Below are positions 1 to 12,085 of a stretch of 12,085 nucleotides of DNA, one piece after another. The notes beneath the pieces are model-generated. The model was not told the origin of the DNA. It saw only the letters and a program-made list of their open reading frames with translations, and did no database searches. The stretch's first letter is position 1. The number at the start of each line of letters is the position of its first letter. Both the position numbers and the translations under genes were made by a program. Origin of the DNA: a virus (lineage: Duplodnaviria > Heunggongvirae > Uroviricota > Caudoviricetes); the IMG/VR virus record IMGVR_UViG_2529293043_000033. One strand, 5' to 3'.

Positions 1-1119
1 TCAAATAACCAACTTAACCCATTCCTGACCTCGAGTATCGTTATAGCGATCGGTGGTTGCCTGGACTTTATGTCCTAGTAATGTTTTTGTATCGATACCC
101 TGTGCACGGTACAGCCGTTCTGATAGAGAGCGTTGTTCATGAAATGTTGGCGGAGTTTTTCCTGCTGGTGGAATTACCCCAGCCAGATCCCGTGCTTTGG
201 CAAAGTAGTCGCTCAGGTTGTCTTTACTCATCGGCTTCGGTTGTTTCTGGTGCCGACTATGGATTAGATATGGACTTAATATTCTGTCTCGGCACCCATC
301 AATAACTTCTTTTAACGTTATCCCAATGGCATCACAGCGTAGTGTAAGCGGTAACGCCAGACGCATTCCGGTTTTTCCCTGGGTGATATGCAAGTGTTCG
401 TTCCACACATCTGAAAAACGCATGTGGCAAATGTCATCACGGCGCTGACCAGTAACAATCGCAAGAAGCATTGCGTTACGGATAAAGTGTTTTTCAGGCG
501 TTGCATTGTAAATTTTTTGCCAGTCTTCCATGGTGAGCCTGGCTCTGGTTACTTTAGGGATCGGTTTACGGGTAGCCTCCGGAGGATTCCATCCAGGAGG
601 AACTTCCCCTGCATGCTGTGCTTCTTTATAAATATCAACCCATAATCCACGATTTACTCTCGCTGTACTGACCATGTCTTTATCCAGCCACTCATCCAGT
701 ATTAATGCAAAGTCTCTTACTTCCAGTTCTTTCAATGGGTGGTTTCCCAGACGGGAAACCAGGTATGCAGCCATTCGAGTTTTTTCTTTGTGAGTTGTAG
801 CTGCAATATCTCCATTTTTCAGTCGCGTGTCCTGTATTTTCAGATATCGATCAACCCATGCCTTTAATCTGATACCCCGACGTTTTGTTGCTGACGGACT
901 TTCATCAATTTTGCGCATGAAATATTCAGCTTCTGCTGCAGCTATTCGCTGATTGGCTGTGGAAGCGATTTTTTCTGCCTTACCTTTGTCTGTTCCGAGT
1001 CCGTGAAATTTTCCAGTCACAGGATTTTTATACTGGTAGTAAACTCTGCCAGTTCTGCGATCAAACTTTTCGTAAAGACCGGCTACGTCAGTGCTGTTTT
1101 TTCGTGGCCTCGGTGACAT
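1..1119 (-). CDS. int: Phage tyrosine-type site-specific integrase (lambda Int family)
   Basis: 372-aa ORF, ATG at 1119-1117, stop is the first 3 bases of the window. C-terminal catalytic region has the R...H-x-x-R...Y pattern (HEQRSLSERLY ... GHKVQATTDRY). Followed by an overlapping small excisionase-like gene, the typical int-xis arrangement. Confidence 0.9.
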   Translation of the reverse strand: MSPRPRKNSTDVAGLYEKFDRRTGRVYYQYKNPVTGKFHGLGTDKGKAEKIASTANQRIAAAEAEYFMRKIDESPSATKRRGIRLKAWVDRYLKIQDTRLKNGDIAATTHKEKTRMAAYLVSRLGNHPLKELEVRDFALILDEWLDKDMVSTARVNRGLWVDIYKEAQHAGEVPPGWNPPEATRKPIPKVTRARLTMEDWQKIYNATPEKHFIRNAMLLAIVTGQRRDDICHMRFSDVWNEHLHITQGKTGMRLALPLTLRCDAIGITLKEVIDGCRDRILSPYLIHSRHQKQPKPMSKDNLSDYFAKARDLAGVIPPAGKTPPTFHEQRSLSERLYRAQGIDTKTLLGHKVQATTDRYNDTRGQEWVKLVI

Positions 1120-1357
1120 GAGTTAAAATCTCCTTCAGTGCATCATCATCGCCAGTATGAATTTCCGGCGCAATTCCCGTTTCACCAGGCCCAACAAATA
1201 CTGCTCGGCGATCTATCAGCCAACGCCCACGAATTTTTTGTGGTCTTGGAACGATGTATCCTAGTTTTCCGTATTTCACCAGGGTAGTGTTTGTTATTGG
1301 GAGACTGAACCGTTTTGGTTTCCACTCGTCGAGCGTTATCAGGTACTGTTCGCTCAT
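1088..1357 (-). CDS. xis: Excisionase-like protein (Xis / DUF1233-type small DNA-binding protein)
   Basis: About 89 aa from ATG at 1357-1355 (GGAG 8 nt upstream on the minus strand); the track's 92-aa version starts at an in-frame GTG at 1366. Overlaps the int start by 32 bp. Small basic protein with an MSEQYLITLDEW ... KYGKLGYIVP motif typical of prophage excisionases. Confidence 0.7.
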   Translation of the reverse strand: MSEQYLITLDEWKPKRFSLPITNTTLVKYGKLGYIVPRPQKIRGRWLIDRRAVFVGPGETGIAPEIHTGDDDALKEILTHVTEATKKQH

Positions 1358-1418
1358 GGCTATCACTCCGGAACGCGCCAGTTGCAGAATATCAACGACA
1401 ACTGGCGACGGTTGAACA

Positions 1419-1856
1419 TTAAAAATCAGCCTGACTCGGGATCAGTTTTTGCCAGATAACTGAAACGTATTTTGCCTGGTAACGGGCGTCATCAAGTGCA
1501 TTATGGCGCTCACCTTCGAATGGAATAGCCGTTCTGGCATCGAAGTCTATGGCTTTCCCCAGCTCAACGATTGTGCGTACATCGCGATCGTTGTAGTAAC
1601 GCCACGGGCAGGGGATCCCCTGCCGTTCGTATGAACGGCGCAAAATCGTGTTGTCGAAGTTGGCTCCATTTCCCCAGACCTGAACAAAAAATTCACCGGA
1701 GTTTTCGTCGATAAATTCCCGCAATTGTAACAGTGCATCATCTAACGGGATTTCATCGGTCATAATGGCAGATTGCGCTTCGCGTGATTGCTTAAGCCAC
1801 CATTTAATGGTGTCCCTCGCCGTGTGCTTTCGTGTTGTGTGCCTGCTTTTTACCAC
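1419..1856 (-). CDS. DEDDh (DnaQ/KapD-like) 3'-5' exonuclease, apparently N-terminally truncated remnant
   Basis: Exo II-like motif (WGNGANFDNT) and Exo III-like motif (HNALDDARY) are present, but no Exo I D-x-E motif in the roughly 60 residues before Exo II. The frame is closed by a stop at 1904-1902 just upstream of the GTG start at 1856-1854, so the missing N-terminus is not encoded here. Confidence 0.6.
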   Translation of the reverse strand: MVKSRHTTRKHTARDTIKWWLKQSREAQSAIMTDEIPLDDALLQLREFIDENSGEFFVQVWGNGANFDNTILRRSYERQGIPCPWRYYNDRDVRTIVELGKAIDFDARTAIPFEGERHNALDDARYQAKYVSVIWQKLIPSQADF

Positions 1857-1880
1857 GTCAGGCGAGGTGGTCCCCGTTAT

Positions 1881-1926
1881 TCCCCAACAACAAGGATCTT
1901 GTTAATCTGGATATCCCCAACAACAA
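1881..1926. repeat. 13-bp direct repeat TCCCCAACAACAA (1881-1893 and 1914-1926) at the junction between the exonuclease remnant and the AT-rich gene
   Basis: Two exact copies read directly from the sequence, about 20 bp apart. Confidence 0.7.
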
Positions 1927-1940
1927 TAAGAGTATTGAAT

Positions 1941-2456
1941 GTGATCGCTGAATTAACGGCAGCAATGACGGCTATTCGTGAAACCGCCCAGATTGCAAAA
2001 CTAATGAACGAGGCAAAAACTCAAGCTGAAGTAAATGCGGCTATTGGTGAACTGAACTCAAAGCTTGCATCTATTCAGCGCGAATGCGTGTCTCTCGTTG
2101 AGCTGGTGGGCACTTATCAAGAAATAAATGCTTCTCTCAAAGCTAAAATTGCAGAATTTGAAAACTTTGAGGCTCAGACGGAAGGTTATATCCTTAGCCA
2201 ACTTGAGTCGGGAACTTTTGTGTACTCGAAGGAGGTAACCGTGAACGGCGGCAGCATAATCATGCATCTTTGTCCAAAATGTTTTGGACAAAAGATAGTA
2301 TCGATACTTCAGCCATTCCCGGTTAGAGAATATGAATTTTTTCATAAAAGCAGGTGCCTGTACTGTGAAAATCAGTTTCTTATGAATAAAAATCCGGATT
2401 ACGTATCACCTCCATCTATTGAAGAGTTGGCCAGAAAACTGAACGGCAATCTGTAG
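1941..2456 (+). CDS. Hypothetical protein: N-terminal coiled-coil, C-terminal CxxC...CxxC zinc-ribbon; AT-rich accessory gene
   Basis: Likely start GTG 1941 (AAGAG 8 nt upstream); alternative ATG 1965 has no SD. About 41% GC by hand count over 1981-2460, versus roughly 50-55% in the neighbouring genes. Oriented against the flanking leftward genes. C-terminus has CPKC ... CLYC. The track's 1788 start runs antisense into the exonuclease gene and is unlikely. Confidence 0.5.
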   Translation: MIAELTAAMTAIRETAQIAKLMNEAKTQAEVNAAIGELNSKLASIQRECVSLVELVGTYQEINASLKAKIAEFENFEAQTEGYILSQLESGTFVYSKEVTVNGGSIIMHLCPKCFGQKIVSILQPFPVREYEFFHKSRCLYCENQFLMNKNPDYVSPPSIEELARKLNGNL

Positions 2457-2570
2457 ATTTTTACTGTTATGGATATCCAGATTGTTAAAGAGCATGCCGG
2501 ATGCTTGCTTGTGTCCGGCGCGTGTGCACCACTCTCCCCCCGTGGAGGATTCCTTAATTACCAGATTTCA

Positions 2571-2801
2571 TTAGTCAGAGTTTCTTGCTAACCAGCGACG
2601 CGCGCCAGATTCGGTTTTAAACGTTTTGCTTTTGGTATACGTCATCGCGGTGAACGTGCCGTCCTGGTTGGGAAACACGCCGCACACCAGAGATTCGTTG
2701 TTGCCAAGATCAAGAGTATCCATGCTGACCTCATATCCCCTTAACGCCGGGGTAGCGGAACAAAAACCTGCTGCATAGTTAAAGTTGAACCCTGCCGTCA
2801 T
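2571..2801 (-). CDS. Hypothetical small protein (76 aa), first gene of the leftward early operon
   Basis: ATG at 2801-2799 with GAGG about 9 nt upstream on the minus strand. Lies about 95 nt downstream of the predicted leftward promoter. No recognisable motif. Confidence 0.4.
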   Translation of the reverse strand: MTAGFNFNYAAGFCSATPALRGYEVSMDTLDLGNNESLVCGVFPNQDGTFTAMTYTKSKTFKTESGARRWLARNSD

Positions 2802-2901
2802 GTTCTTACGCCTCGGGCTGGCTACTTAATCCCTGACCACTGCCGGGTAACTCTAGGTATTGCCCTGTATTGTGTGGGACGGGATGGGTTGGTATGGGAA
2901 A

Positions 2902-2945
2902 ACTATAGGAAATGCCTAATTGCTTGTCAATAGGCTACGCCTAAT
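2902..2945 (-). promoter_or_regulatory. Leftward early promoter (PL-like) with two operator half-palindromes (OL-like)
   Basis: Minus-strand -35 TTGACA (2930-2925), 17-bp spacer, -10 TATAGT (2907-2902). Operator-like sites ATAGGAAATGCCTAAT (2905-2920) and ATAGGCTACGCCTAAT (2930-2945) overlap the -10 and -35 and match the motif found in the OR region. Confidence 0.5.
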
Positions 2946-3003
2946 GATTTGGGTGCGACCTAATAGGTGATGGTTTGTGGGAGAGGTAGTAGGAGTTAAC
3001 TAA

Positions 3004-3023
3004 CGGGAACTAGGAATTTCCCG
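3004..3023 (-). terminator. Possible weak terminator hairpin downstream of the repressor gene
   Basis: Inverted repeat CGGGAA-N8-TTCCCG just 3' of the repressor stop; the following U-tract on the minus strand is weak. Confidence 0.25.
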
Positions 3024-3038
3024 TCGGACCATATAAGT

Positions 3039-3515
3039 TTAAGTTCCTGTCTTGGTGATGTTCTGGCTTTTCCGTTTTGATTCTTGATTTTTCAGATAGT
3101 TAGCTACCTTCATTTCCATTGCGGCAATGTAGGCACGAACGTCATGATCAACCCAACTAGGCTCCGTAGCATTTCCAGATAAGAGGAAAGCCACAATTGC
3201 TCTTTTTTCATCAGAGGCGGCTTGATAAAGGCTGTTTATGTCTAAAAGTTCACTTTTTGTATCTGAAGTGGATGGGGTTGGTATGGGGTATTCGTTAAGC
3301 CCCCAATGCTCTGGACCAACCACATCAGAAAAGAAACGCCATAGTTCTGGAAGTTTGTCTTTACTTATCGAACCTTTCTTAATCCAGTCATGGATTGATG
3401 GTGGTTGGACTTTGAAATGACGTGCGATTTCCGCCTTTGATTTGACGGCTCCTGATGCAATTTTTTTGTTAATGGCCTGCTCTATCGCTCGGCCTAAGTC
3501 TTTACCACTAAGCAT
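3039..3515 (-). CDS. racR: Prophage repressor, RacR-like (CI functional analogue)
   Basis: 158-aa ORF divergent from a YdaS/Cro-like gene and flanked on both sides by repeated operator palindromes. N-terminal HTH-like segment (AEIARHFKVQPPSIHDWIKKG). Size and context match the RacR-YdaS-YdaT immunity module. Confidence 0.75.
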   Translation of the reverse strand: MLSGKDLGRAIEQAINKKIASGAVKSKAEIARHFKVQPPSIHDWIKKGSISKDKLPELWRFFSDVVGPEHWGLNEYPIPTPSTSDTKSELLDINSLYQAASDEKRAIVAFLLSGNATEPSWVDHDVRAYIAAMEMKVANYLKNQESKRKSQNITKTGT

Positions 3516-3542
3516 TGCTTAATAGTCTCCTATGCGCATCGC

Positions 3543-3612
3543 ATTAGGCAATGCCTACTCTCGAAGCGTTAGGCATAGCCTATTGACAATTGCATTAGGC
3601 TAAGCCTAATAT
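3543..3612 (+). promoter_or_regulatory. Tripartite OR-like operator with rightward PR-like promoter
   Basis: Three palindromic sites with centres 25-26 bp apart: ATTAGGCAATGCCTAC (3543-3558), TAGGCATAGCCTA (3570-3582), and the perfect 7-3-7 palindrome ATTAGGCTAAGCCTAAT (3594-3610). Promoter -35 TTGACA (3583-3588), 18-bp spacer, -10 TAATAT (3607-3612), overlapping the third site. Confidence 0.65.
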
Positions 3613-3639
3613 TATTGTGTGTTTTTTGGAGTTCATTCG

Positions 3640-3963
3640 ATGAAAAAAGATAACTATTCATTCAAACGAGCTTGTGCTGTTGTCGGTGGGCAATCAGCAA
3701 TGGCTAGGCTTTTAGGTGTATCTCCTCCAAGCGTAAATCAATGGATCAAAGGTGTACGTCAGTTGCCTGCTGAGAGATGTCCTGCGATTGAACGAGCAAC
3801 AAAAGGTGGTGTCCTGTGTGAAGAACTTCGTCCTGATGTTGATTGGACATACTTACGACGCTCGTCATGTTATTCGCAGAATATGTCGATGAAGCAACCA
3901 AATGACGAAAACGATCATACCCGAAGCATCAAGAGGCAAATGATTCATGAAAATCAAACATGA
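3640..3963 (+). CDS. ydaS: Cro-like HTH regulator, YdaS family
   Basis: ATG 3640 with GGAG 9 nt upstream, about 20 nt from the predicted PR start site. MKKDNYSFKRACAVVGGQSAMARLLGVSPPSVNQWIKGVRQLPAERCPAIERA closely matches what I recall of Rac YdaS. The track's 3619 GTG start is less likely. Confidence 0.8.
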   Translation: MKKDNYSFKRACAVVGGQSAMARLLGVSPPSVNQWIKGVRQLPAERCPAIERATKGGVLCEELRPDVDWTYLRRSSCYSQNMSMKQPNDENDHTRSIKRQMIHENQT

Positions 3964-4372
3964 GCACATCCGCATGGCGATGAATGCCTGGGCATATCCT
4001 GATGGTGAGAAAGTTCCTGCAGCTGAAATAGCCCGGACTTATTTCGAACTGGGGATGACGTTCCCGGAACTGTACGACGACAGCCATCCGGAAGCCCTGG
4101 CTCGTAATACCCAGAAAATTTTCCGTTGGCTGGATAAAGACACCCCTGATGCTGTTGAAAAAATGCAGGCTCTGTTACCGGCGATCGAAAAGGCAATGCC
4201 GCCTCTGCTGGTGGCCCGTATGCGCAGTCACAGCTCTGAATATTACCGTGAGATCGTCGAACGGAGGGATCGGCTGGTGAAAGATGTGGATGATTTTGTC
4301 GCAGCGGCGATCGCCTGGGGCACCCTGACTAACAGTGGGGGTCAGCCTGGTAATGCTGTTGTCGTGCATTGA
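3947..4372 (+). CDS. ydaT: YdaT-like protein (toxic when derepressed; CII-like functional analogue)
   Basis: 141 aa, overlaps the ydaS-like stop by 17 bp. N-terminus MKIKHEHI and its position immediately after ydaS match the Rac/CP-933P arrangement. Confidence 0.7.
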   Translation: MKIKHEHIRMAMNAWAYPDGEKVPAAEIARTYFELGMTFPELYDDSHPEALARNTQKIFRWLDKDTPDAVEKMQALLPAIEKAMPPLLVARMRSHSSEYYREIVERRDRLVKDVDDFVAAAIAWGTLTNSGGQPGNAVVVH

Positions 4373-4440
4373 CCAACAATATTCATGCCGGATTTCTTCC
4401 GGATGTTCGAGGGTAAAGTTCGGTATCAGATGAGGTGAGT

Positions 4441-5478
4441 ATGGCTAATGCCTGGCTCAGATTGTGGCATGACATGCCAAATGATCCCAAATGGCGAACC
4501 ATTGCCAGGGTCTCAGGACAGCCAATCGCAACAGTGATGGCGGTGTATATCCACCTTCTGGTGAGTGCGTCACGAAATGTCACGAAATGTCACGGCGAGT
4601 CACTACGTGGTCACATTGATGTCACGACGGAAGATTTAGCAAGTGCGCTTGATGTGACGGAAGACGTGATTGATTCAATTTTGCATGCAATGCAGGGGCG
4701 AGTTCTGGATGGCGATCTTATTTCCGGATGGGAAAAACGCCAGGTGATGAAGGAGGATAACGGTAATGTTTCGCAAACCGCAAAATCCCCGGCAGAGCGC
4801 AAGAGAGCGCAGCGGGAGCGGGAAAGACTGCGGGAGCAGAACACTGATTGTCACGATGAGTCACGACGCGTCACGCATATGTCACGACAAGTCACGACAG
4901 ATACAGATACAGATAAAGAATTAAACCCCACACATAACGCGCGCATGCGCGAGAGTGCTCCAGCCAGTGAGTCGAATGGCGCGCCGTTGCAGACAGCAGA
5001 ACCTGAATACCCGGATGGCCTGAGCGAACCGATCGGGAAATTTCCGATGACTGGTGTCTGGCGGCCGTCGCTGGATTTTCGACAGCGGGCTGCATTGTGG
5101 GGTATGGCTCTGCCTGAGCCTGAGTTTACACCTGCTGAGCTTGCCGCATTCCGGGATTACTGGATGGCGGAGGGGAAGGTTTTCACGCAGGTTCAGTGGG
5201 AGCAGAAATTTGCCCGTCACGTGCAGCACGTCAGGGCACAGGTAAAACCAGTCAGCAAGGGGGTAAGCCATGCAGCACCAGGTGGCACCGCATCACGGGC
5301 AGTTCAGGAAATTCGGGCAGCACGTGAACAGTGGGAACGTGAAAACGGATTTATCAGCAACGGAAACGGCCTGGAAGCTGTGGGAACTTATGGGGGAGGT
5401 GTATTCGAACCGCTGGACCCAGAAGAACGGGGCTGCGCCGTCGAAGCTCTGGATTGCTCAGATTGGCGCGATGACTGA
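4441..5478 (+). CDS. Replication initiator, lambda O-like (YdaU/DUF1376-type N-terminus), contains the origin iterons; C-terminus possibly extended
   Basis: ATG 4441 with GAGG 5 nt upstream (the track's GTG 4435 is less likely). N-terminus MANAWLRLWHDMPNDPKWRTIA. Two iteron arrays lie inside the gene, as in lambda O. The last roughly 70 codons overlap the P-like gene out of frame and are low-complexity. Confidence 0.75.
   Translation: MANAWLRLWHDMPNDPKWRTIARVSGQPIATVMAVYIHLLVSASRNVTKCHGESLRGHIDVTTEDLASALDVTEDVIDSILHAMQGRVLDGDLISGWEKRQVMKEDNGNVSQTAKSPAERKRAQRERERLREQNTDCHDESRRVTHMSRQVTTDTDTDKELNPTHNARMRESAPASESNGAPLQTAEPEYPDGLSEPIGKFPMTGVWRPSLDFRQRAALWGMALPEPEFTPAELAAFRDYWMAEGKVFTQVQWEQKFARHVQHVRAQVKPVSKGVSHAAPGGTASRAVQEIRAAREQWERENGFISNGNGLEAVGTYGGGVFEPLDPEERGCAVEALDCSDWRDD
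4569..4626. repeat. Iteron array I: six GTCAC(G) repeats at 10-11 bp spacing (candidate ori)
   Basis: GTCACGAAAT GTCACGAAAT GTCACGGCGA GTCACTACGTG GTCACATTGAT GTCACGACGG; copies start at 4569, 4579, 4589, 4599, 4610 and 4621. Confidence 0.75.
4850..4914. repeat. Iteron array II: five GTCACG repeats at 10-11 bp spacing, followed by an (ACAGAT)x3 tandem repeat
   Basis: GTCACG at 4850, 4860, 4870, 4881 and 4891; tandem hexamer 4897-4914 (encodes TDTDTD in the O-like protein). A GCGCGCATGCGCG palindrome follows at about 4929-4942. Confidence 0.75.
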
Positions 5479-5932
5479 ACAGCAAATCCGGCAGGTCTGC
5501 CGTCAGTGCATGGACCGCTGCCGGGCGGGTGAAACGTGGCCTCCGGACCTGGCTGAGTTTGTGGCGTTGATTTCGGAGAGCGGGGCAAATCCATTTGGCC
5601 TGACGGTGGATGCCGTGATGGAGGAGTACCGTCGCTGGAGGAATGAATCCTGGCGGTACGACGGGAGTGATAAATACCCGTGGCCACAGCCGGTGCTGTA
5701 CCACATTTGCCTCGAGATGCGTGACAGAGGGATTGAGCGGCAGATGACGGAAGGTGAGTTAAAACGACTTGCAGAACGGCAACTGACGAAATGGGCAAAG
5801 CAAGTTGGTAACGGGATGAGTATTCCCCCGATCCGGAGACAACTCGCATCGCCGAAGTGCCCGCAAGGGCCAACGCCAATTGAATTACTGAAACAGGAAT
5901 ACGAGCGCCGGAAGGCGGCTGGTTTTGTTTGA
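5270..5932 (+). CDS. Replication protein P-like (helicase loader, lambda P family)
   Basis: ATG 5270 with AAGGGGG SD 6 nt upstream. Recalled similarity to lambda P (TWPPDLAEFVALI versus PFLPSPGQFVAWC; YDGSDKYPWPQP versus YPDAESYPWKSN) falls at comparable residue positions, and the 220-aa length is close to lambda P (233 aa). An alternative coupled start ATG 5471 (ATGACTGA with the O stop) cannot be excluded. Confidence 0.7.
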   Translation: MQHQVAPHHGQFRKFGQHVNSGNVKTDLSATETAWKLWELMGEVYSNRWTQKNGAAPSKLWIAQIGAMTEQQIRQVCRQCMDRCRAGETWPPDLAEFVALISESGANPFGLTVDAVMEEYRRWRNESWRYDGSDKYPWPQPVLYHICLEMRDRGIERQMTEGELKRLAERQLTKWAKQVGNGMSIPPIRRQLASPKCPQGPTPIELLKQEYERRKAAGFV

Positions 5933-5965
5933 ATCTGAGAAACGATTTTGTCGGAGGAAATTTTA

Positions 5966-6682
5966 ATGGAAACCGTATCTGACGCACTGAAAGCACTGAA
6001 AAGAGCCTCTTCACATGTGGTGGCAGCTCGCCTTGGAATTAGTCGTGAAGAGGCTGTCAACGAACTGTGGAAACTGAAACGCCGTGGAGAAGCGGATAAC
6101 AAGGGGGCGATATGGTGGCTGACTCAGGCTGGTGAAAGTGAACCGGTGTCACCGGTACCGAAAGTGACGGCGCAAATGCTGACAGAGGCGATTGAACAAC
6201 ATGGCCCACAAACGGCGGATGAACTGGCATTGATGTTCGGAATTACCTCCCGCCGGGCGAATTCATCGCTGGCAATGGCAATCAGCAAAGGGTGTCTGAT
6301 TCGCGTGAATCAGGATGGTAAATTTCGTTACTGCATACCGGGCGTTGATTTACCGGCAGAGCCGAAAGCAGCATCCGTAGCTGAAACGGAGGGTAAAGCC
6401 CTTCCTCAGCCAGCTGGTGTTGCGTTACCAGTCCAGGAAACGGCTGCACAGGAAGAAATTAAAACAGAAGCGGTGGAGGACATTGTGAAGTTGCAGCAAT
6501 CGTTCACTGAAGCGAAAGCAGATGACCTGATTCTACCATCGCTGCATGTGGCTAACCGCGAGCTGCGCCGGGCGAAAAGTAATGTTCAGAAGTGGGAGCG
6601 AGTCTGTGCTGCGCTACGGGAACTGAACAAACACAGGGATATTCTCCGGGATATTACCGCCACCAGAGAGCAGCAGCGGTGA
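5966..6682 (+). CDS. Hypothetical protein with two winged-helix-like segments and a C-terminal coiled-coil (possibly DUF1627-like)
   Basis: ATG 5966 with GGAGG 8 nt upstream; the track's start at 5948 is a TTG. HTH-like segments [19 protein letters not shown] and [24 protein letters not shown]. Confidence 0.55.
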
Positions 6683-6996
6683 GTGGCTGGAAGAAGTGGC
6701 GCTGGGCTGAAATCCTGATACTCCGGCAGTGTGCGGGAACGATGAGAGTCGAAAGCATCGGTTATCTGATTGGCCGTAGTGAGTCAGCCGTCAGGACGAA
6801 AGCGCGGGAACTGGGTATCAGCATGATGTTACGGGGTGATTATCACCAGTCAGCCAAATGTTCACAGCGTGATATTGAGCTGGCGTGGCAACTGCATCAG
6901 CGTGGTGTACCCCGACGGGAAATTGCCGAAAAGTTTGGGATGAAGTTGGGCGCAGTGAATAACTACGTTTATTTCGACAGGAGGGTTCAGGAGTGA
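6679..6996 (+). CDS. Hypothetical DNA-binding protein (two HTH-like segments)
   Basis: In-frame GTG at 6679 overlaps the upstream TGA (GTGA coupling); alternative ATG at 6742. HTH-like segments [20 protein letters not shown] and [20 protein letters not shown]. Confidence 0.45.
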
Positions 6997-6998
6997 GG

Positions 6999-7295
6999 GT
7001 GAGGGTTTATATCGCCGGTCCGATGACGGGATATGAAAATTTTAACCGCGAGGCATTTCACAAAACGGAAGAGGTGCTGAAACGGGAAGGGCATACCGTT
7101 TTAAACCCGGCAGTACTTCCGGACGGGCTGACTCAGCCACACTACATGGATATTTGCATGGCAATGCTCCGTTGCGTGGATGCGGTTTACATGCTGAAAG
7201 GCTGGCAGCAGTCGGCAGGTGCAGGGGCTGAGCTGGCACTGGAGGAGAAACCGGGCCATGCGGTGATTTTTCAGGAGGTGGGCAGTGAATATTGA
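6999..7295 (+). CDS. DUF4406-like protein (nucleoside 2-deoxyribosyltransferase-like fold)
   Basis: VYIAGPMTG N-terminal motif with a downstream W..S.G.GAE pattern. GTG 6999 with AGGAG 7 nt upstream (the track's GTG 6993 has no usable spacing). Confidence 0.6.
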   Translation: MRVYIAGPMTGYENFNREAFHKTEEVLKREGHTVLNPAVLPDGLTQPHYMDICMAMLRCVDAVYMLKGWQQSAGAGAELALEEKPGHAVIFQEVGSEY

Positions 7296-7602
7296 CCCGG
7301 CGATAACGATTGATATGGCCCTGAACGCCGGCCTGGCACTTCTTGGTTATTTCTACATTATGTTCTGCAGCGGACGATGGCTGTCACTGTTGTTCATGAA
7401 AAAATGGAATAAACGCCGTAAGCAGGAGCAACGCCAGAAGGCAATGGATGCATTTTTCGAAGCCTTCGGAATTGACGGCATGGAACCAGGGGATCCAGCT
7501 CGCGCAATCAGCAGAGGGGGTGTAGTAATCCTTGTATATCGGAGTGAAGAGAAAAATGACGATCACAAAACAACGTGTAGAAGAAATCATATCCCGCATT
7601 GA
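7285..7602 (+). CDS. Hypothetical small membrane protein
   Basis: GTG 7285 with AGGAGG 6 nt upstream. Predicted TM helix ALNAGLALLGYFYIMFCSGRWLSLLFM followed by a basic stretch. The 3' end overlaps the next gene by about 47 bp, so its extent is uncertain. Confidence 0.4.
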   Translation: MNIDPAITIDMALNAGLALLGYFYIMFCSGRWLSLLFMKKWNKRRKQEQRQKAMDAFFEAFGIDGMEPGDPARAISRGGVVILVYRSEEKNDDHKTTCRRNHIPH

Positions 7603-7873
7603 AATGTATGGACATGGTGCAGGGTATATCGCAGACGAGGTTAATGATCTGGCTATACTGGCGCTGAATTTATCAAATATCGCGAACCTGAAGCGATACG
7701 AGCTTGATATGGGAGGTTGCGACTCGTGCGGTCAGGATTGTGGCGCTGATATGACTGAAGATCCTGATGGTGATTATGTCCTGTTTGATGACGTGGTTAA
7801 GTTGTTTGAATTTGATACAACCACTCAAAAGTTAGAAATCCCGGCAAAGGAGGCAGCCAGTGGGCAAGATTGA
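7556..7873 (+). CDS. Hypothetical acidic protein
   Basis: ATG 7556 preceded by GGAGTGAAGAG. 105 aa with a CDSCGQDCG cysteine cluster and an acidic C-terminus. Confidence 0.5.
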   Translation: MTITKQRVEEIISRIEMYGHGAGYIADEVNDLAILALNLSNIANLKRYELDMGGCDSCGQDCGADMTEDPDGDYVLFDDVVKLFEFDTTTQKLEIPAKEAASGQD

Positions 7874-8297
7874 CTATCAGGCACTGCGTGAGGCAGCACA
7901 AAACTATCAATCGACGCTGGCGTGGTATCAGGCTACCCCGGACAGCCCAAATGCTGAACGGGATTGTGATGCGGCTCTTGCTGCGTTTAAGCGTCACATC
8001 CGTCATCGGGAAGCGGATATTATCGCTGATTTGCTGGATGGACTGGAAGAAGCAAAATCACAACTCAACGAGCAGCGTGAGTATTACGAAGGCGTTATCT
8101 CTGATGGGAGCAAGCGTATTGCTGAACTGGAAGCGCGGGAAGTTCAATTACCGACTCGCTACGACCTTCGATATGGACACCCGATAAATGCAGATGAGCG
8201 ACATGTCATGATACCTAAAGAAAATGGCAGTTGGCTTTACCTGATTGACCTAGAACACGCATTACGCGTCGCTGGCATTCGCATCAAAGGAGAGTGA
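7860..8297 (+). CDS. Ea22-like prophage protein (N-terminal QALREAA motif)
   Basis: GTG 7860 with AAGGAGG 6 nt upstream; overlaps the upstream gene by 14 bp. N-terminus IDYQALREAAQNY is characteristic of the E. coli prophage ead/Ea22-like family. Confidence 0.55.
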   Translation: MGKIDYQALREAAQNYQSTLAWYQATPDSPNAERDCDAALAAFKRHIRHREADIIADLLDGLEEAKSQLNEQREYYEGVISDGSKRIAELEAREVQLPTRYDLRYGHPINADERHVMIPKENGSWLYLIDLEHALRVAGIRIKGE

Positions 8298-8298
8298 G

Positions 8299-8490
8299 AT
8301 GAACGGACAAATATCAATTGTTCGACCAGGAGCATGTGACGATCGCGAAATACGAATGATTATTCGTCTGGCGATGGGGAAAACAATAACTGCTCTCATT
8401 ACTCCAGAAAATCTCGCATTAGCATTAACAGGAAAGTCAGACATGCCAGTAGAGCTAAAGCTGCGAAATGTTGAGATTAAGGTGAAATAG
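8299..8490 (+). CDS. Hypothetical small protein (63 aa)
   Basis: ATG 8299 with AGGAG upstream, starting 1 nt after the preceding stop; tightly packed between neighbouring genes. Confidence 0.5.
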   Translation: MNGQISIVRPGACDDREIRMIIRLAMGKTITALITPENLALALTGKSDMPVELKLRNVEIKVK

Positions 8491-8492
8491 CT

Positions 8493-9080
8493 ATGACCAC
8501 TATTACCAAAGATCGACTGCTGACAATCCAGCATTGGCGCGAAACATACGGACCGGGTAGCAACGTTGTGCTTCCAGCAGAAGAAGCGGAAGAGCTGGCA
8601 CGGATTGCGCTGGCATCACTGGCAGCAGTATCGGATGAACGAGCAGCCTATGAATTATTTATGGAGAAGCGTTTCGGAGAATCTGTAGATCGCCGCAGAG
8701 CAAAAAATGGCGATAGAGATTACATGGTATGGGATATGGCGCTTGGCTGGATTATCTGGTGTCACCGCGCCGCCATGCTTCAGGCTGGAAACTTTCGGGA
8801 AAATAAGGGTTCGTCAACCAATAATTTTCGGGAAATCTCGGAAACGTCAACCAACTATCCGGTAACTCCGGATGGTTGGATAAGCTGTAGTGAGCGAATG
8901 CCGGATGATGGTCAGCACGTAATTATTTTATGTGATGGCGCATTCGTTCTTTATGCGCAATATCGAGACGGTGAGTTTTTTGATGTAGTCCGTAATGGTG
9001 ATGAATTTTTCGAAACACAGAGCCGCAATGTAACCGACTGGATGCCGCTACCAGAACCGCCGCAGGAGGTGCGCCAATGA
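8493..9080 (+). CDS. DUF551-domain prophage protein
   Basis: C-terminal motif TDWMPLPEPP typical of DUF551; starts 2 nt after the preceding stop. Confidence 0.65.
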   Translation: MTTITKDRLLTIQHWRETYGPGSNVVLPAEEAEELARIALASLAAVSDERAAYELFMEKRFGESVDRRRAKNGDRDYMVWDMALGWIIWCHRAAMLQAGNFRENKGSSTNNFREISETSTNYPVTPDGWISCSERMPDDGQHVIILCDGAFVLYAQYRDGEFFDVVRNGDEFFETQSRNVTDWMPLPEPPQEVRQ

Positions 9081-9160
9081 TCTGGCCTGAAGCCTTTGCA
9101 ATTACAGGCGTTGCTATAGCTATTGATTTTTTAGTATATGTTATTTGTCGGTGGGGGTAA
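9077..9160 (+). CDS. Small hydrophobic peptide (27 aa, MIWPEAFAITGVAIAIDFLVYVICRWG), not in the ORF track
   Basis: ATG 9077 overlaps the DUF551 stop (ATGA); AGGAGG at 9064-9069 gives a 7-nt spacer. One predicted TM helix. Confidence 0.4.
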   Translation: MIWPEAFAITGVAIAIDFLVYVICRWG

Positions 9161-9195
9161 AAACGTTCGCCGGGATTCACACCAAAGGAGGGAAT

Positions 9196-9300
9196 ATGTC
9201 GGATGATATTTCACTGGCAATGGAAGGTGCGCTGGCTGTTATTGCTGTTGTGGGCGTTTACTGCCTGGTTGTGTTTTTGATGGATCGACTAGGGAACTGA
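9196..9300 (+). CDS. Small membrane peptide (34 aa, MSDDISLAMEGALAVIAVVGVYCLVVFLMDRLGN), not in the ORF track
   Basis: ATG 9196 preceded by AAAGGAGGG. One predicted TM helix. Followed immediately by a perfect 22-bp palindrome. Confidence 0.45.
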   Translation: MSDDISLAMEGALAVIAVVGVYCLVVFLMDRLGN

Positions 9301-9308
9301 ATTCATTA

Positions 9309-9330
9309 CGATATGGGAATTCCCATATCG
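9309..9330. repeat. Perfect 22-bp palindrome CGATATGGGAATTCCCATATCG
   Basis: Read directly; self-complementary around GAATTC. Lies between the second small peptide and the putative hok promoter; no U-tract follows. Confidence 0.7.
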
Positions 9331-9342
9331 GGTAAAAACGGT

Positions 9343-9370
9343 TTGCGGTAAAGCGAGAGTTAAGTAGAAT
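9343..9370 (+). promoter_or_regulatory. Candidate hok mRNA promoter
   Basis: -35 TTGCGG (9343-9348), 16-bp spacer, -10 TAGAAT (9365-9370). A transcript from here to the terminator at about 9796 would be about 420 nt, the expected hok mRNA size. Confidence 0.35.
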
Positions 9371-9429
9371 TGCTGCGGGTGCTTGAGGCTGTCTGCCTCG
9401 GGCATGCCACCGTAAGGTAGACAGAGAAA

Positions 9430-9497
9430 AGCCCCAGTTAACATTACGCGTCCTGCAAGACGCCTAACATTAATCTGAGGCCAATTTCATGCTAGAC
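9430..9497 (-). ncRNA. Candidate Sok-like antisense RNA (approximate extent)
   Basis: Minus-strand promoter candidate -35 TTGCCT (9532-9527), 17-bp spacer, -10 TAACCT (9509-9504), placing an antisense transcript over the mok/hok leader and start region as in hok/sok loci. The 3' end was not resolved. Confidence 0.3.
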
Positions 9498-9545
9498 ACA
9501 TGTAGGTTAGCCTCTTACGCGCCGAAAGGCAAGGAGAAGCAGGCT

Positions 9546-9701
9546 ATGAAGCAGCAAAAGGCGATGTTAATCGCCCTGATCGTCATCTGTATCACCGTCA
9601 TAGTGACGGCACTGGTAACGAGGAAAGACCTCTGCGAGGTACGAATCCGAACCGGCCAGACGGAGGTCGCTGTCTTCACAGCTTACGAACCTGAGGAGTA
9701 A
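9546..9701 (+). CDS. hokD: Hok/Gef-family type I toxin (HokD/RelF-like)
   Basis: 51-aa product MKQQKAMLIALIVICITVIVTALVTRKDLCEVRIRTGQTEVAVFTAYEPEE, near-identical to HokD/RelF as I recall it. AGGAG 9 nt upstream of ATG 9546. An in-frame upstream ATG at 9489 gives a mok-like leader frame. Confidence 0.85.
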   Translation: MKQQKAMLIALIVICITVIVTALVTRKDLCEVRIRTGQTEVAVFTAYEPEE

Positions 9702-9770
9702 GAGACCCGGCGAGGGAGAAATCCCTCGCCACCTCTGATGAATCAGGCATCCTCAACGCACCCGCACTTA

Positions 9771-9796
9771 ACCCGCTTCGGCGGGTTTTGTTTTTT
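9771..9796 (+). terminator. Rho-independent terminator of the hok transcript
   Basis: CCCGC-TTCG-GCGGG stem-loop (9772-9785) followed by TTTTGTTTTTT. Preceded by an fbi-like hairpin GGCGAGGGA-GAAA-TCCCTCGCC at 9709-9730. Confidence 0.75.
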
Positions 9797-9868
9797 CCTG
9801 GCATTCTGGTTTACAATTCGCACGCCAGCCTGAACAACTGGCACCTGCTGCGCCAGCAGAGACAACCG

Positions 9869-10147
9869 ATGGCGCACGATACCAAATTATACAATTCTGA
9901 TGATTCTGCCGTCTTTGCCAGCAGGCGCGGACGGTGTTTTCACGCATTCAAATCTGACTGGTACCAGCATCCCCCATGCACTGAAGAACAGGCCGAATGG
10001 CTCATTCAGTGTTACCGCAGGCGCGGATGCGAGGTTAAAAAAGCCCTTAGCCTCGACTACCGTCACTGGATAATCTCCGTCAGGCTCCCTTACTCCGAAC
10101 GGCCACCGCGTCCGTCCCGCACATTCCAGCAACGGATCTGGAGGTAA
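9869..10147 (+). CDS. Hypothetical protein, Rem-like by position (follows hok as in Qin prophage)
   Basis: First ATG after the terminator (9869), 92 aa. The track's 9788 start lies inside the terminator. Cysteine-rich (C..H ... PPC ... C..RRGC). Assignment is by synteny only. Confidence 0.45.
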   Translation: MAHDTKLYNSDDSAVFASRRGRCFHAFKSDWYQHPPCTEEQAEWLIQCYRRRGCEVKKALSLDYRHWIISVRLPYSERPPRPSRTFQQRIWR

Positions 10148-10148
10148 T

Positions 10149-10832
10149 GTGCGGGTATTACTTCGACCTGTTCTGGTACCGGAACTCGGTCTGGTTATCG
10201 TTAAGCCAGGCCGTGAATCAATGTCAGCATTCCATAACGGCAGAATACTGGTGGAGCCGGAACCAAAAAGCATGCGAGCTCTGCCGTCCGGGGTTGTACC
10301 TGCCGTTCACCAGCCGCTGGCGGAAGATAAATCACTACTGCCATTTTTCAGCGATGAGCGGGTGATCCGTGCTGCGGGTGGCGCTGGTGCACTGTCTGAC
10401 TGGTTATTACGTCACGTGAAATCCTGCCAGTGGCTACACGGTGATTATCATCATAGCGAAACCGTCATTCACCGTTACGGTACCGGCGCGATGGTGTTGT
10501 GCTGGCACTGCGACAACCAGCTGCGGGAGCAGACATCTGATTCACTGGATCAACTTGCTCAACAGAATCTGGCCGCCTGGATGATTGACATCATCCGTCA
10601 CGCAATGAATGGCGCACAGGAGCGTGAATTATCTCTGGCTGAATTATCCTGGTGGGCGGTCCGCAATCAGGTGGCGGACGCGCTACCGGAAGCGGTATTA
10701 CGTCGTTCGCTGGGGTTGCGTGCGGAAAAAATCCGCTCCGTATACCGTGAAAGCGACATCATACCGGGAGAACAGACCGCCACCAGCATACTGAAGCAGC
10801 GCACAAAAAATATTGCGCTACCGTCTCACTGA
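10149..10832 (+). pseudogene. DUF968-like protein (YdfU-like), 3'-truncated by IS insertion
   Basis: GTG 10149 with GGAGG 6 nt upstream. Contains a CQWLHGDYHH ... CWHCDNQ zinc-finger-like motif. The ORF runs to the IS boundary and its stop codon TGA (10830-10832) is the first three bases of the IS inverted repeat; K-12 YdfU is about 349 aa versus 227 here. Confidence 0.6.
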
Positions 10833-10871
10833 ACCGCCCCGGGTTTCCTGGAGAGTGTTTTATCTGTGAAC

Positions 10872-11762
10872 TCAGGCTGCCAGATCATCGTTTCCGATGG
10901 AAGCATAATAAGCTTTTTCTGCTTCTGCCGGAGGAGTATGGCCCAGCCTTCCCAGCAATCGTCGATTGTTATACCAGTCCACCCACGTTAGTGTGGCCAG
11001 TTCCACTTCTGCACGGTTTTTCCAGCTCTTACGGTGTATTACCTCCGCTTTGTAAAGACCATTGATGCTCTCAGCCATCGCGTTGTCATACGAGTCGCCT
11101 GTACTCCCTGTTGATGCCAGTAATCCGGCTTCTTTTAGTCGCTCCGTATAGGCCAGTGACACATACTGAGAGCCTTTATCGCTGTGATGGATGGTGCCAG
11201 ACGGACGACGGGCCCACAACGCCTGCTCCAGCGCATCCAGCACGAATGTCGTTTCCATAGACGATGAGACCCGCCACCCCACGATGTATCCGGCAAACAC
11301 ATCAATGATAAACGCCACATAGACGAAGCCCTGCCATGTGCTGACGTAAGTAAAATCAGCCACCCACAGCTGGTCAGGTCGTTCTGCCACGAACTGACGG
11401 TTTACGCGGTCGCCTGCGGCAACGGCTTTCCGGCTGATGGTCGTACGGACCTTTTTACCCCGGAGAACACCGGCAAGTCCCATAACCGCCATGAGACGTG
11501 CCACTGTACATCTGGCCACCCTGATTCCTTCCCGTAACAACTGACGCCAGACTTTACGCACACCGTACACCTGATGATTTTCATCGTATACGCGCTGTAT
11601 CTCTCTCTTCAGCCAGTCGTCGTGCTGCGCACGGGCACTGCGTTTATCCGGATGATGTCGCTGTTGCTGACAATGGTAATACGTTGACGGGGCAATATGC
11701 AGTTCGCTGCATACCGGTCCGACCCCGTACTGCTCACGCAGCTTATCCAGCAGTGGCATCAT
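10872..11762 (-). CDS. IS3-family transposase OrfB (DDE/integrase catalytic domain)
   Basis: 296 aa; DDE-type motifs (WVADFTYV ... [10 protein letters not shown]); overlaps the orfA stop (ATGA). Confidence 0.9.
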
Positions 11763-12085
11763 TTTTTCCAGAGGCGGTCGAACTCCGCCTTCGCAAAATA
11801 AGCGGAAGCCTGGCGAAGGATATCGTTACTGCGGCGCAGTTCACGATTTTCACGTTCCAGCTCTTTCAGACGCTGACGTTCAGCGCTGGTGAGCCCACCA
11901 TCACCGCCCCCGGTATCCCGCTCATGCTGGCGAACCCAGACACGCAGAGTCTCCGGCGTACAGCCAATCTTTGGGGCAATGGAACAAATTGCCGCCCACT
12001 GTGAGTCATATTCATCCTGACTTTCCAGAACCATACGAATCGCCCGCTGACGGACTTCGGGGGAAAAACGAGTATTTTTAGTCAT
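11759..12085 (-). CDS. IS3-family transposase OrfA (HTH and leucine zipper)
   Basis: 108 aa, [22 protein letters not shown] ... [31 protein letters not shown]. The ATG sits on the last 3 bases of the window. An A6 run at the orfA/orfB junction is the presumed -1 frameshift site. Confidence 0.9.

Follow-up and report, generated by a model that had tools for sequence, protein, structure and literature searches.

A probable Rip1-family antiphage gene behind a sieB-type leader in a Rac-like cryptic prophage

The opposite-strand gene and its cassette

The IMG/VR virus record IMGVR_UViG_2529293043_000033 (Caudoviricetes), a stretch of 12,085 nucleotides (nt) referred to here as the window, was analyzed around a gene at 1941-2456 which lies on the plus strand, while int, xis, an exonuclease fragment, DUF1391 and racR all lie on the minus strand. 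Bases 1-10829 of the window are 99.98% identical to the prophage adjoining potC/potD in Escherichia coli O157:H7 strain TR01, and the host element is a Rac-like cryptic prophage. Judged by its sequence relatives and modelled fold, the product of the gene belongs to the Rip1 antiphage family, and the gene is carried with a leader of the sieB type in a mobile cassette, the features of which are listed below together with a promoter to its right.

1833..2493, no strand assigned: mobile cassette comprising the leader, the cargo gene and 37 nt of 3′ flank (blastn against phage PhiR49_1)
1836..1945, minus strand: region for a predicted sas-like cis-antisense RNA, reverse-complementary to the leader with its start codon (homology to the lambda/P22 sieB promoter-leader)
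1840..1871, no strand assigned: nearly invariant core, TGCCTG-CTTTTT-ACCAC-GT-CAGGC-GA-GGTGGT (upstream alignments)
1871..1897, minus strand: predicted hairpin B of the antisense RNA, UCCUUGUUGUU-GGGG-AAUAACGGGGA, 11 base pairs including three G:U
1880..1915, plus strand: putative cargo-gene promoter (by homology to the promoter mapped for P22 sieB)
1900..1926, minus strand: predicted hairpin A of the antisense RNA, in which the UUGUUGGGG motif recurs (alignment and folding)
1928..1932, plus strand: Shine-Dalgarno-like AAGAG, 8 nt before the GTG (read from the sequence)
1941..2456, plus strand: coding sequence (CDS) of the Rip1 family, GTG start, 171 amino acids (aa) plus stop (RefSeq, alignments, AlphaFold2, PDB matches)
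2482..2493, minus strand: exact rrn-type boxA-like GCTCTTTAACAA at the right edge of the cassette (one match against 0.04 expected)
2902..2930, minus strand: strong sigma-70-like promoter TTGACA-17-TATAGT, leftward through DUF1391 (promoter scan)

A gene for a product of 171 aa at this place had been proposed in the initial annotation, and the list of open reading frames (ORFs), in which the plus-strand frame is open from 1788 to 2456, agrees with it, as do the GTG start and RefSeq, where exactly the same CDS is recorded for strain TR01 as WP_000559928.1, a "hypothetical protein". The N-terminus MIAEL(S/T)AAM that follows from this start is kept in homologues of the protein, and the GTG itself recurs in many independent copies of this type of cassette. 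Comparison with four diverged alleles (PhiR49_1, Salmonella, Citrobacter and Edwardsiella) gave ratios of nonsynonymous to synonymous substitution (dN/dS) of 0.14-0.23, with 0.14 for the 93.6%-identical allele of PhiR49_1, and because of these values the ORF is regarded as real and under purifying selection. The gene was also described initially as AT-rich relative to its neighbours, which holds for the adjoining genes only: its GC content of 41.9% falls within the lowest 2% of the 516-bp windows across the whole stretch (50% GC overall) and lies below those of the exonuclease fragment (48.9%) and DUF1391 (50.2%), but racR and ydaS are similarly low (42.6%) and int has 45.3%, so the low GC is not peculiar to this gene. 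Since racR and ydaS share it, low GC is, on its own, weak evidence.

Membership of the Rip1 family

Profile search and structure prediction both point to HK446 Rip1. The AlphaFold2 model of the protein, built from a 38-sequence alignment, has a mean predicted local distance difference test score (pLDDT) of 91.5 and shows two helices, at residues 3-23 and 28-79, and after them a beta-rich domain that takes up residues 84-150. When this model was searched against the PDB with Foldseek, only two significant matches were obtained, both of them chains of entry 9oox (probability 1.00, template modelling score 0.73 when normalised to the target), which is HK446 Rip1, "ring interacting pore 1", in complex with the small terminase of phage T6. 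A profile of 60 diverse relatives searched against PDB sequences likewise retrieved 9oox_L at E=2.1e-35, with the match spanning profile positions 5-149 out of 156 and chain residues 15-160 out of 164. In pairwise BLASTP, the protein is 27% identical to HK446 Rip1 (E=5e-13) and 30% identical over 153 residues to gp30 of the Pseudomonas phage JBD30 (E=6e-20), gp30 and HK446 Rip1 match each other at E=9e-27, and hhalign gave a probability of 99%. On this sequence and model evidence, the gene is placed in the Rip1 antiphage family, which was described in 2026. The coiled coil followed by a CPKC...CLYC zinc ribbon that had been read from the letters alone agrees with the long N-terminal helices and the modelled architecture, and the four cysteines (C111 and C114 of CPKC, C139 and C142 of CLYC) are invariant in the alignments of 30, 38 and 60 sequences and align with those of HK446 Rip1.

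The family is large, since an exhaustive profile search returned 3318 cluster representatives at E≤1e-3, 1768 of them at E≤1e-10, with lengths mostly between 145 and 180 aa among the best 150 of the 3318. Against phage genomes, tblastn found copies that are 94% identical in PhiR49_1 and PhiR29_1, 51% identical in Klebsiella phages, and 27-31% identical in the HkaP genes of HK620, HK630 and HK629, in HK446, and in the Mu-like Pseudomonas phages JBD30, DMS3, D3112 and MP38. In PHROGs, the protein falls in phrog_1244 (function unknown), and scans against Pfam, NCBIfam and PADLOC (2023) returned sub-threshold coiled-coil noise only.

Likeness to HK446 Rip1 extends to length (164 against 171 aa), to the N-terminal helices with a four-cysteine zinc-ribbon domain, to the ordered motifs G-x-x-V-Y, CxxC, SILQ and CxxC, and to the setting, as both are lone plus-strand genes in a leftward early operon near N with a leader of the sieB/sas type. 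The two differ in that HK446 has the lambda variant of the leader (CCCCTACAG, with ATG) and the window has CCCCAACAAC with GTG, in the 20-residue C-terminal tail with a short helix that is found in the window protein, and in the carrier, a viable phage in the one case and a degraded Rac-like prophage in the other. HkaP of HK620, HK630 and HK629 is of the same family (~29% identity, E=1e-12) and lies between cIII and N; its leader is of the lambda type, and it was never characterised under the name HkaP. The gp30 of JBD30 and its homologues in D3112, DMS3 and MP38, which make up a Casadabanvirus moron beside the gene for the large terminase (gp31 in JBD30), also resemble the window gene in being the sole opposite-strand gene among their neighbours, and the moron is reported to confer phage resistance. 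They are unlike the window gene in lacking a sas-type leader and in lying in the late operon between terminase genes.

The initial annotation had taken the gene for an uncharacterised single-gene system, of which the defence-type cargo is borne out by the homology to Rip1, while "uncharacterised" does not apply to a family described in 2026. The homology obtained is to a defence protein rather than to a housekeeping phage protein, and in HK446, HK620, HK630 and PhiR49_1 the gene is an opposite-strand insert rather than a part of the early-left operon. Membership of the SieB family was rejected, as no match to PF14163 was found at E≤0.1 and the protein contains no hydrophobic stretch.

The promoter-leader and its antisense strand

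An upstream element of ~105 nt is better conserved than the coding sequence in homologues of the gene, as was revealed by comparing 200 nt of upstream sequence from diverged homologues, the protein identities of which are only 27-70%. Its core has the consensus TGCCTG-yCTTTT-n-ACCAC-nT-CAGGC-nn-GGTGG, within which two complementary pairs, GCCTG/CAGGC and ACCAC/GTGGT, are nested or interleaved, and in Edwardsiella the second is replaced by a compensatory ACCGC/GCGGT pair. Conservation stops sharply at the left edge of the core. On its 3′ side there is a variable hairpin, to which the long versions of the leader add two copies of a C-rich repeat that reads CCCCAACAAC in leaders of the window type and CCCCTACAG in those of the lambda type, both copies changing together. 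On the plus strand of the window, the first CCCCAACAACAA repeat is located at 1882-1893 and the second at 1915-1926, the latter within hairpin A.

In blastn, the region 1836-1945 matched the P22 region annotated "sieB: promoter" with 85% identity over 40 nt, and in lambda the element is found directly upstream of sieB. The P22 record places the sieB promoter and the mapped start of the sieB RNA inside the element, with 105 nt separating the ATG of SieB from the core's left edge, and it gives Esc as an internal start of sieB. The sequence of sas obtained from P22 by RNA-seq (PMC13397905) and the P22 leader are exact reverse complements, with sas extending from the start codon of SieB across the two repeats and the core. 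The sas RNA is described as a cis-antisense RNA of 105 nt which shifts translation of sieB from SieB to Esc, whereby P22 escapes its own exclusion. At the level of sequence, the head of the cassette shares homology with the promoter of P22 sieB and with the sas region, and by analogy with P22 sieB, the window gene would be regulated by a sas-like RNA. The SieB/Esc/sas systems of P22 and lambda share with the window gene the slot, the orientation, the homologous promoter-leader with its antisense RNA region, and the character of an abortive-infection-type exclusion gene of lambdoid prophages, but the proteins are unrelated, SieB being a PF14163 membrane protein of ~192 aa.

The promoter of the cargo gene was placed by aligning the window with the P22 promoter at 29690-29720 and its RNA start at 29727, which puts a predicted -35 element (TTCCCC) at 1880-1885, a -10 element (TAATCT) at 1903-1908 and the start of transcription at ~1913-1915; a generic scan for promoters and terminators returned nothing for the plus-strand gene. 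The promoter at 2902..2930 is a candidate source of RNA antisense to the cargo gene and its leader.

Folding favours the minus strand. Each hairpin was folded on both strands, as the MAFFT alignment of the leaders is structurally inconsistent in the variable hairpin. For 66 of the 69 unique leaders, the hairpin adjacent to the core folded more stably on the minus strand (mean -8.8 against -6.0 kcal/mol), and across the set it contained 58 G:U pairs there against 13 on the plus strand, although the 69 leaders are related by descent, so that these statistics and their p-value are indicative only. Across the same leaders, the stem sequences vary widely yet remain complementary. The three G:U pairs of hairpin B in the window correspond to C.A mismatches on the plus strand, where the stem is imperfect. 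This strand bias is consistent with a structured antisense RNA. Readings of the core as a plus-strand H-type pseudoknot, riboswitch or element of the 5′ untranslated region were dropped, as were CsrA sites (ACAAGGAU) and a boxA-like UCUUUUAAC in the leader, because the P22 transcript starts downstream of the core, the minus strand forms the better hairpin and sas matches the antisense strand. In Rfam, no match to the leader was found on either strand, even at E≤10.

At the other end of the cassette, the boxA-like sequence at 2482-2493 may serve the leftward operon as a nut-like site. Of the 15 loci that carry GCTCTTTAACAA, 11 have a canonical intrinsic terminator after it on the plus strand, a hairpin with a T-run directly to its right, and in the leftward RNA of the sister cassettes the order is hairpin and then boxA, as in rrn antiterminators.

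Predicted mode of action and alternatives

In a 2026 review of Patel et al. (Nature 651:1060, 2026), Rip1 is described as a protein from a P. aeruginosa prophage, where its gene lies between those of the terminase; it is not toxic alone and causes rounding of infected cells. As described there, 12 Rip1 subunits encircle an 11-mer ring of small terminase, with the C-terminal half touching the ring and the N-terminal amphipathic helices making the pore, and the complex releases dye from liposomes and leads to premature lysis. Escape mutations are reported in the portal for Pseudomonas phages, unlike those of E. coli phages, which are in the small terminase, and homologues are said to be widespread among proteobacterial prophages (same review). 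A conference report and a later paper citing Rip1 as a small-terminase sensor agree with this account, and the JBD30 structural paper lists gp30 as a phage-resistance moron. In 2001, HkaP of HK620 was annotated as a putative superinfection exclusion protein.

From the homology, fold, genomic context and purifying selection of the gene, the product of the locus is probably an antiphage protein of the Rip1 family, for which a cassette of the sieB type provides expression within a Rac-like prophage in decay, and its mechanism is predicted from that of its characterised homologues. A low level of the protein, harmless alone, would be made in the lysogen from the weak promoter and the GTG start, and it would wait in the cytoplasm until an infecting phage reaches late gene expression. 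The C-terminal zinc-ribbon domain would then bind the small-terminase or portal ring of the infecting phage, and the bound ring would template a ring of Rip1, the N-terminal helices of which may enter the inner membrane as a pore, so that the cell is permeabilised before the progeny mature, as in abortive infection. For the carrier itself, the plus strand of the leader would give weak constitutive expression of the cargo gene, and leftward early transcription, from the promoter-like site at 2930-2902 or from some other promoter, would yield antisense RNA covering the ribosome-binding site and start codon; the leftward transcription of the carrier phage could in this way shut off translation of Rip1 during its own lytic growth and provide self-immunity. 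A comparable arrangement is Tab/anti-Tab of JBD26, which lies on the opposite strand in the same terminase-gene hotspot as the Pseudomonas Rip1 homologues, is expressed from the prophage, acts late on a component of virion assembly and has a dedicated self-immunity device. It differs from the window protein in that Tab has 83 aa and is described as having no similarity to proteins of known function, in that it blocks tail assembly via the tape-measure protein, and in that its self-immunity is due to a protein, anti-Tab, and not to an antisense RNA.

Several points weigh against this interpretation. On the side of the protein, the AlphaFold2 model is a monomer and silent on the formation of a ring or pore, the 18-residue hydrophobic moment is moderate, peaking at 0.44 (residues 7-24) and 0.41 (37-54), identity to the characterised Rip1 proteins is 27-30%, at which the trigger specificity and even the activity could differ, and neither Pfam nor PADLOC (2023) holds a model of the family that would confirm the defence role independently. 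On the side of the leader, the promoter placed by homology scores poorly against the consensus, no promoter was pinned down for the antisense RNA, and the folding z-score of the window's antisense RNA taken as a single sequence is unremarkable (-0.58). An Esc-like internal product, which a switch of the P22 type needs, is not evident in the gene, although Met9 and Met22 are present internally. Lastly, the O157 copy differs in sequence from 2494 onward and lacks the 3′ terminator of the cassette.

Classical superinfection exclusion, in which the entry of DNA is blocked at the envelope instead of a late-acting pore causing abortive infection, would fit the annotation of HkaP in HK620 and the statement in the JBD30 structural paper, summarising Tsao et al. 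2018, that gp30 "blocks phage genome injection". This statement is second-hand. No signal peptide or transmembrane segment was found in the window protein, whose mean hydrophobicity over 18 residues reaches 0.34 at most; the partner of the homologue in the solved complex, the T6 small terminase, is a late protein of the cytoplasm, and the escape mutations reported for Rip1 in the review lie in portal and small terminase, which leaves envelope exclusion quite unlikely. A zinc-ribbon regulator of prophage development that binds nucleic acid, acting in the lysis-lysogeny decision or as an excision accessory, is very improbable. Binding of nucleic acids is common among zinc ribbons with four cysteines, the gene is situated next to racR in the immunity region, and weak profile matches to C2H2 fingers were seen, but these are marginal (E 1e-5 or weaker) and reflect the CxxC spacing only, the solved homologue binds a protein ring, and the same family is found between the terminase genes of Mu-like phages. 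The gene is, moreover, dispensable and patchy in distribution, being swapped for sieB or many other cargos behind the same leader.

The address of the gene in intact phages and in the decaying prophage

In intact lambdoid phages, the family member invariably stands alone on the opposite strand within the early or immunity region. It lies between cIII and N in HK620, HK630 and HK446, beside N in Edwardsiella, and next to the repressor or cro in prophages of Citrobacter and Salmonella, while in PhiR49_1 the cassette is placed between yfdP-type early-left genes and cI; in the Mu-like phages of Pseudomonas the family member is between terminase genes. The sieB of lambda occupies the same position as the Rip1-family genes of the intact phages. 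What is conserved is a location in the sieB slot, by the repressor and the N region, and the proximity to int in the window is accidental.

The left neighbours of the cassette are:

1-1119, minus strand: int
1088-1366, minus strand: xis
1419..1820, minus strand: C-terminal remnant of a RecE-type 3′-5′ exonuclease, a RefSeq pseudogene without its N-terminus

The exonuclease ORF, at 1419-1856 on the minus strand, comprises the last ~134-145 codons for a RecE-like protein that is longer than 800 aa (phrog_2082 positions 685-823), and recT with the remaining early-left region is deleted. The junction of the deletion falls between 1820 and 1833, and homology to the cassette of PhiR49_1, an otherwise unrelated phage, starts in blastn at 1833 and runs to 2493 with 93.6% nucleotide identity. 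The gene abuts xis and int because this deletion removed most of the exonuclease gene and the early-left region, and its position beside the int-xis module, to which the initial annotation drew attention, is therefore real as adjacency and a product of the deletion.

Such decay raises the question of a non-functional passenger, that is, a gene which belongs to the family by descent and is unexpressed or inactive in O157:H7. Besides the truncated exonuclease, rusA and DUF6645 are pseudogenes in TR01, an insertion sequence (IS) lies inside DUF968, the canonical 3′ terminator of the cassette is lost and the predicted promoter is weak. Nevertheless, the ORF is intact with every family-invariant residue present, the dN/dS against the PhiR49_1 allele is low, the leader is preserved with both hairpins, and weak expression is what is expected of an abortive-infection protein; a mere passenger is therefore considered unlikely.

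In a Salmonella prophage (L011-L013, 5001-6660), the cassette, with the same head and a protein 70% identical, was located in the rightward early operon just past cro and co-oriented with cI. The cassette can land on either side of the immunity region, because this copy lies in the rightward and not in the leftward operon. In an Edwardsiella prophage (L014-L016, 5001-9785), the Rip1-like gene is followed by two plus-strand ORFs of 228 and 175 aa of unknown function, and in two of the three genomes a GmrSD-type gene (PF03235) and an ORF of 208 aa are found on the other side of N, so that this immunity region looks like a multi-gene defence hotspot.

The cassette was found in 681 of 5426 complete E. 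coli genomes. As it is carried by O157:H7 and by roughly an eighth of the complete E. coli genomes, the Rip1-type gene likely shapes which phages, including therapeutic or biocontrol phages, propagate on the carrier strains.

The same head before other cargo

A pattern scan of IMG/VR for the head returned at least 120 loci (L017-L136). Among the matches listed, 107 downstream ORFs comprised 23 encoding SieB (PF14163), 12 that are Rip1-like, and others in at least 26 unrelated clusters of small proteins, which gives at least 28 cargo clusters when SieB and Rip1 are included. The proteins range from 63 to 195 aa, and one cargo of 195 aa matched PF14163 at E=1e-27. Representatives of ten cargo clusters were checked, eight of which fall in PHROGs of unknown function and two in none, and PADLOC returned essentially no match among these ten. 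Short-leader versions, in which the start codon is ~68-72 nt after the core, were also seen, and their GGTGG-TATnCT resembles an extended -10 element.

Both of the cargos of known function behind the head, SieB and Rip1, are abortive-infection proteins, and the head encodes the only known antisense-RNA self-immunity device of the sieB slot. It may be suggested, tentatively and with rather more doubt than confidence, that the head is a portable expression and self-immunity module which lambdoid phages place before interchangeable anti-phage cargo, most of the other cargos being undescribed exclusion or abortive-infection genes. If so, a sas-like antisense RNA would silence the Rip1-type genes of enterobacterial phages while the carrier goes through its own lytic cycle, one RNA-based self-immunity device would be common to unrelated effectors, and a simple DNA pattern would serve for the discovery of new single-gene defences. 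The head offers a testable explanation of how a lambdoid phage carries a Rip1 gene without killing itself, and a cheap sequence handle for further single-gene defences. Neither a head shared by Rip1 genes and diverse other cargo nor the RNA-based self-immunity that such sharing would imply for unrelated effectors was found described in the searchable literature, which is not proof of novelty, and the primary Rip1 paper was outside this search. The shared head is a more novel lead than the Rip1 membership.

Other elements of the window

Beyond the cassette, the order of genes is DUF1391 and racR on the minus strand, ydaS and ydaT, and then the replication genes. The racR-ydaS-ydaT module extends from 3039 to 4372, and in it, as in the Rac prophage of K-12, the RacR repressor is oriented divergently to YdaS (PF15943, with the annotation toxin, Cro-like) and to YdaT (PF06254). 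A hok/sok type I toxin-antitoxin system was detected at 9377-9701, where sok matched Rfam with 114 bits (9377-9551, plus strand) and a hokD-like ORF at ~9489-9701 is annotated as hokD in TR01. At the right end, an IS3-family element of the IS1203/IS629 type (10830-12085) splits the DUF968 gene relative to TR01 and contains orfB (10872-11762) and orfA (11759-12085), both on the minus strand, with an ALIL frameshift pseudoknot at 11688-11804 on the same strand.

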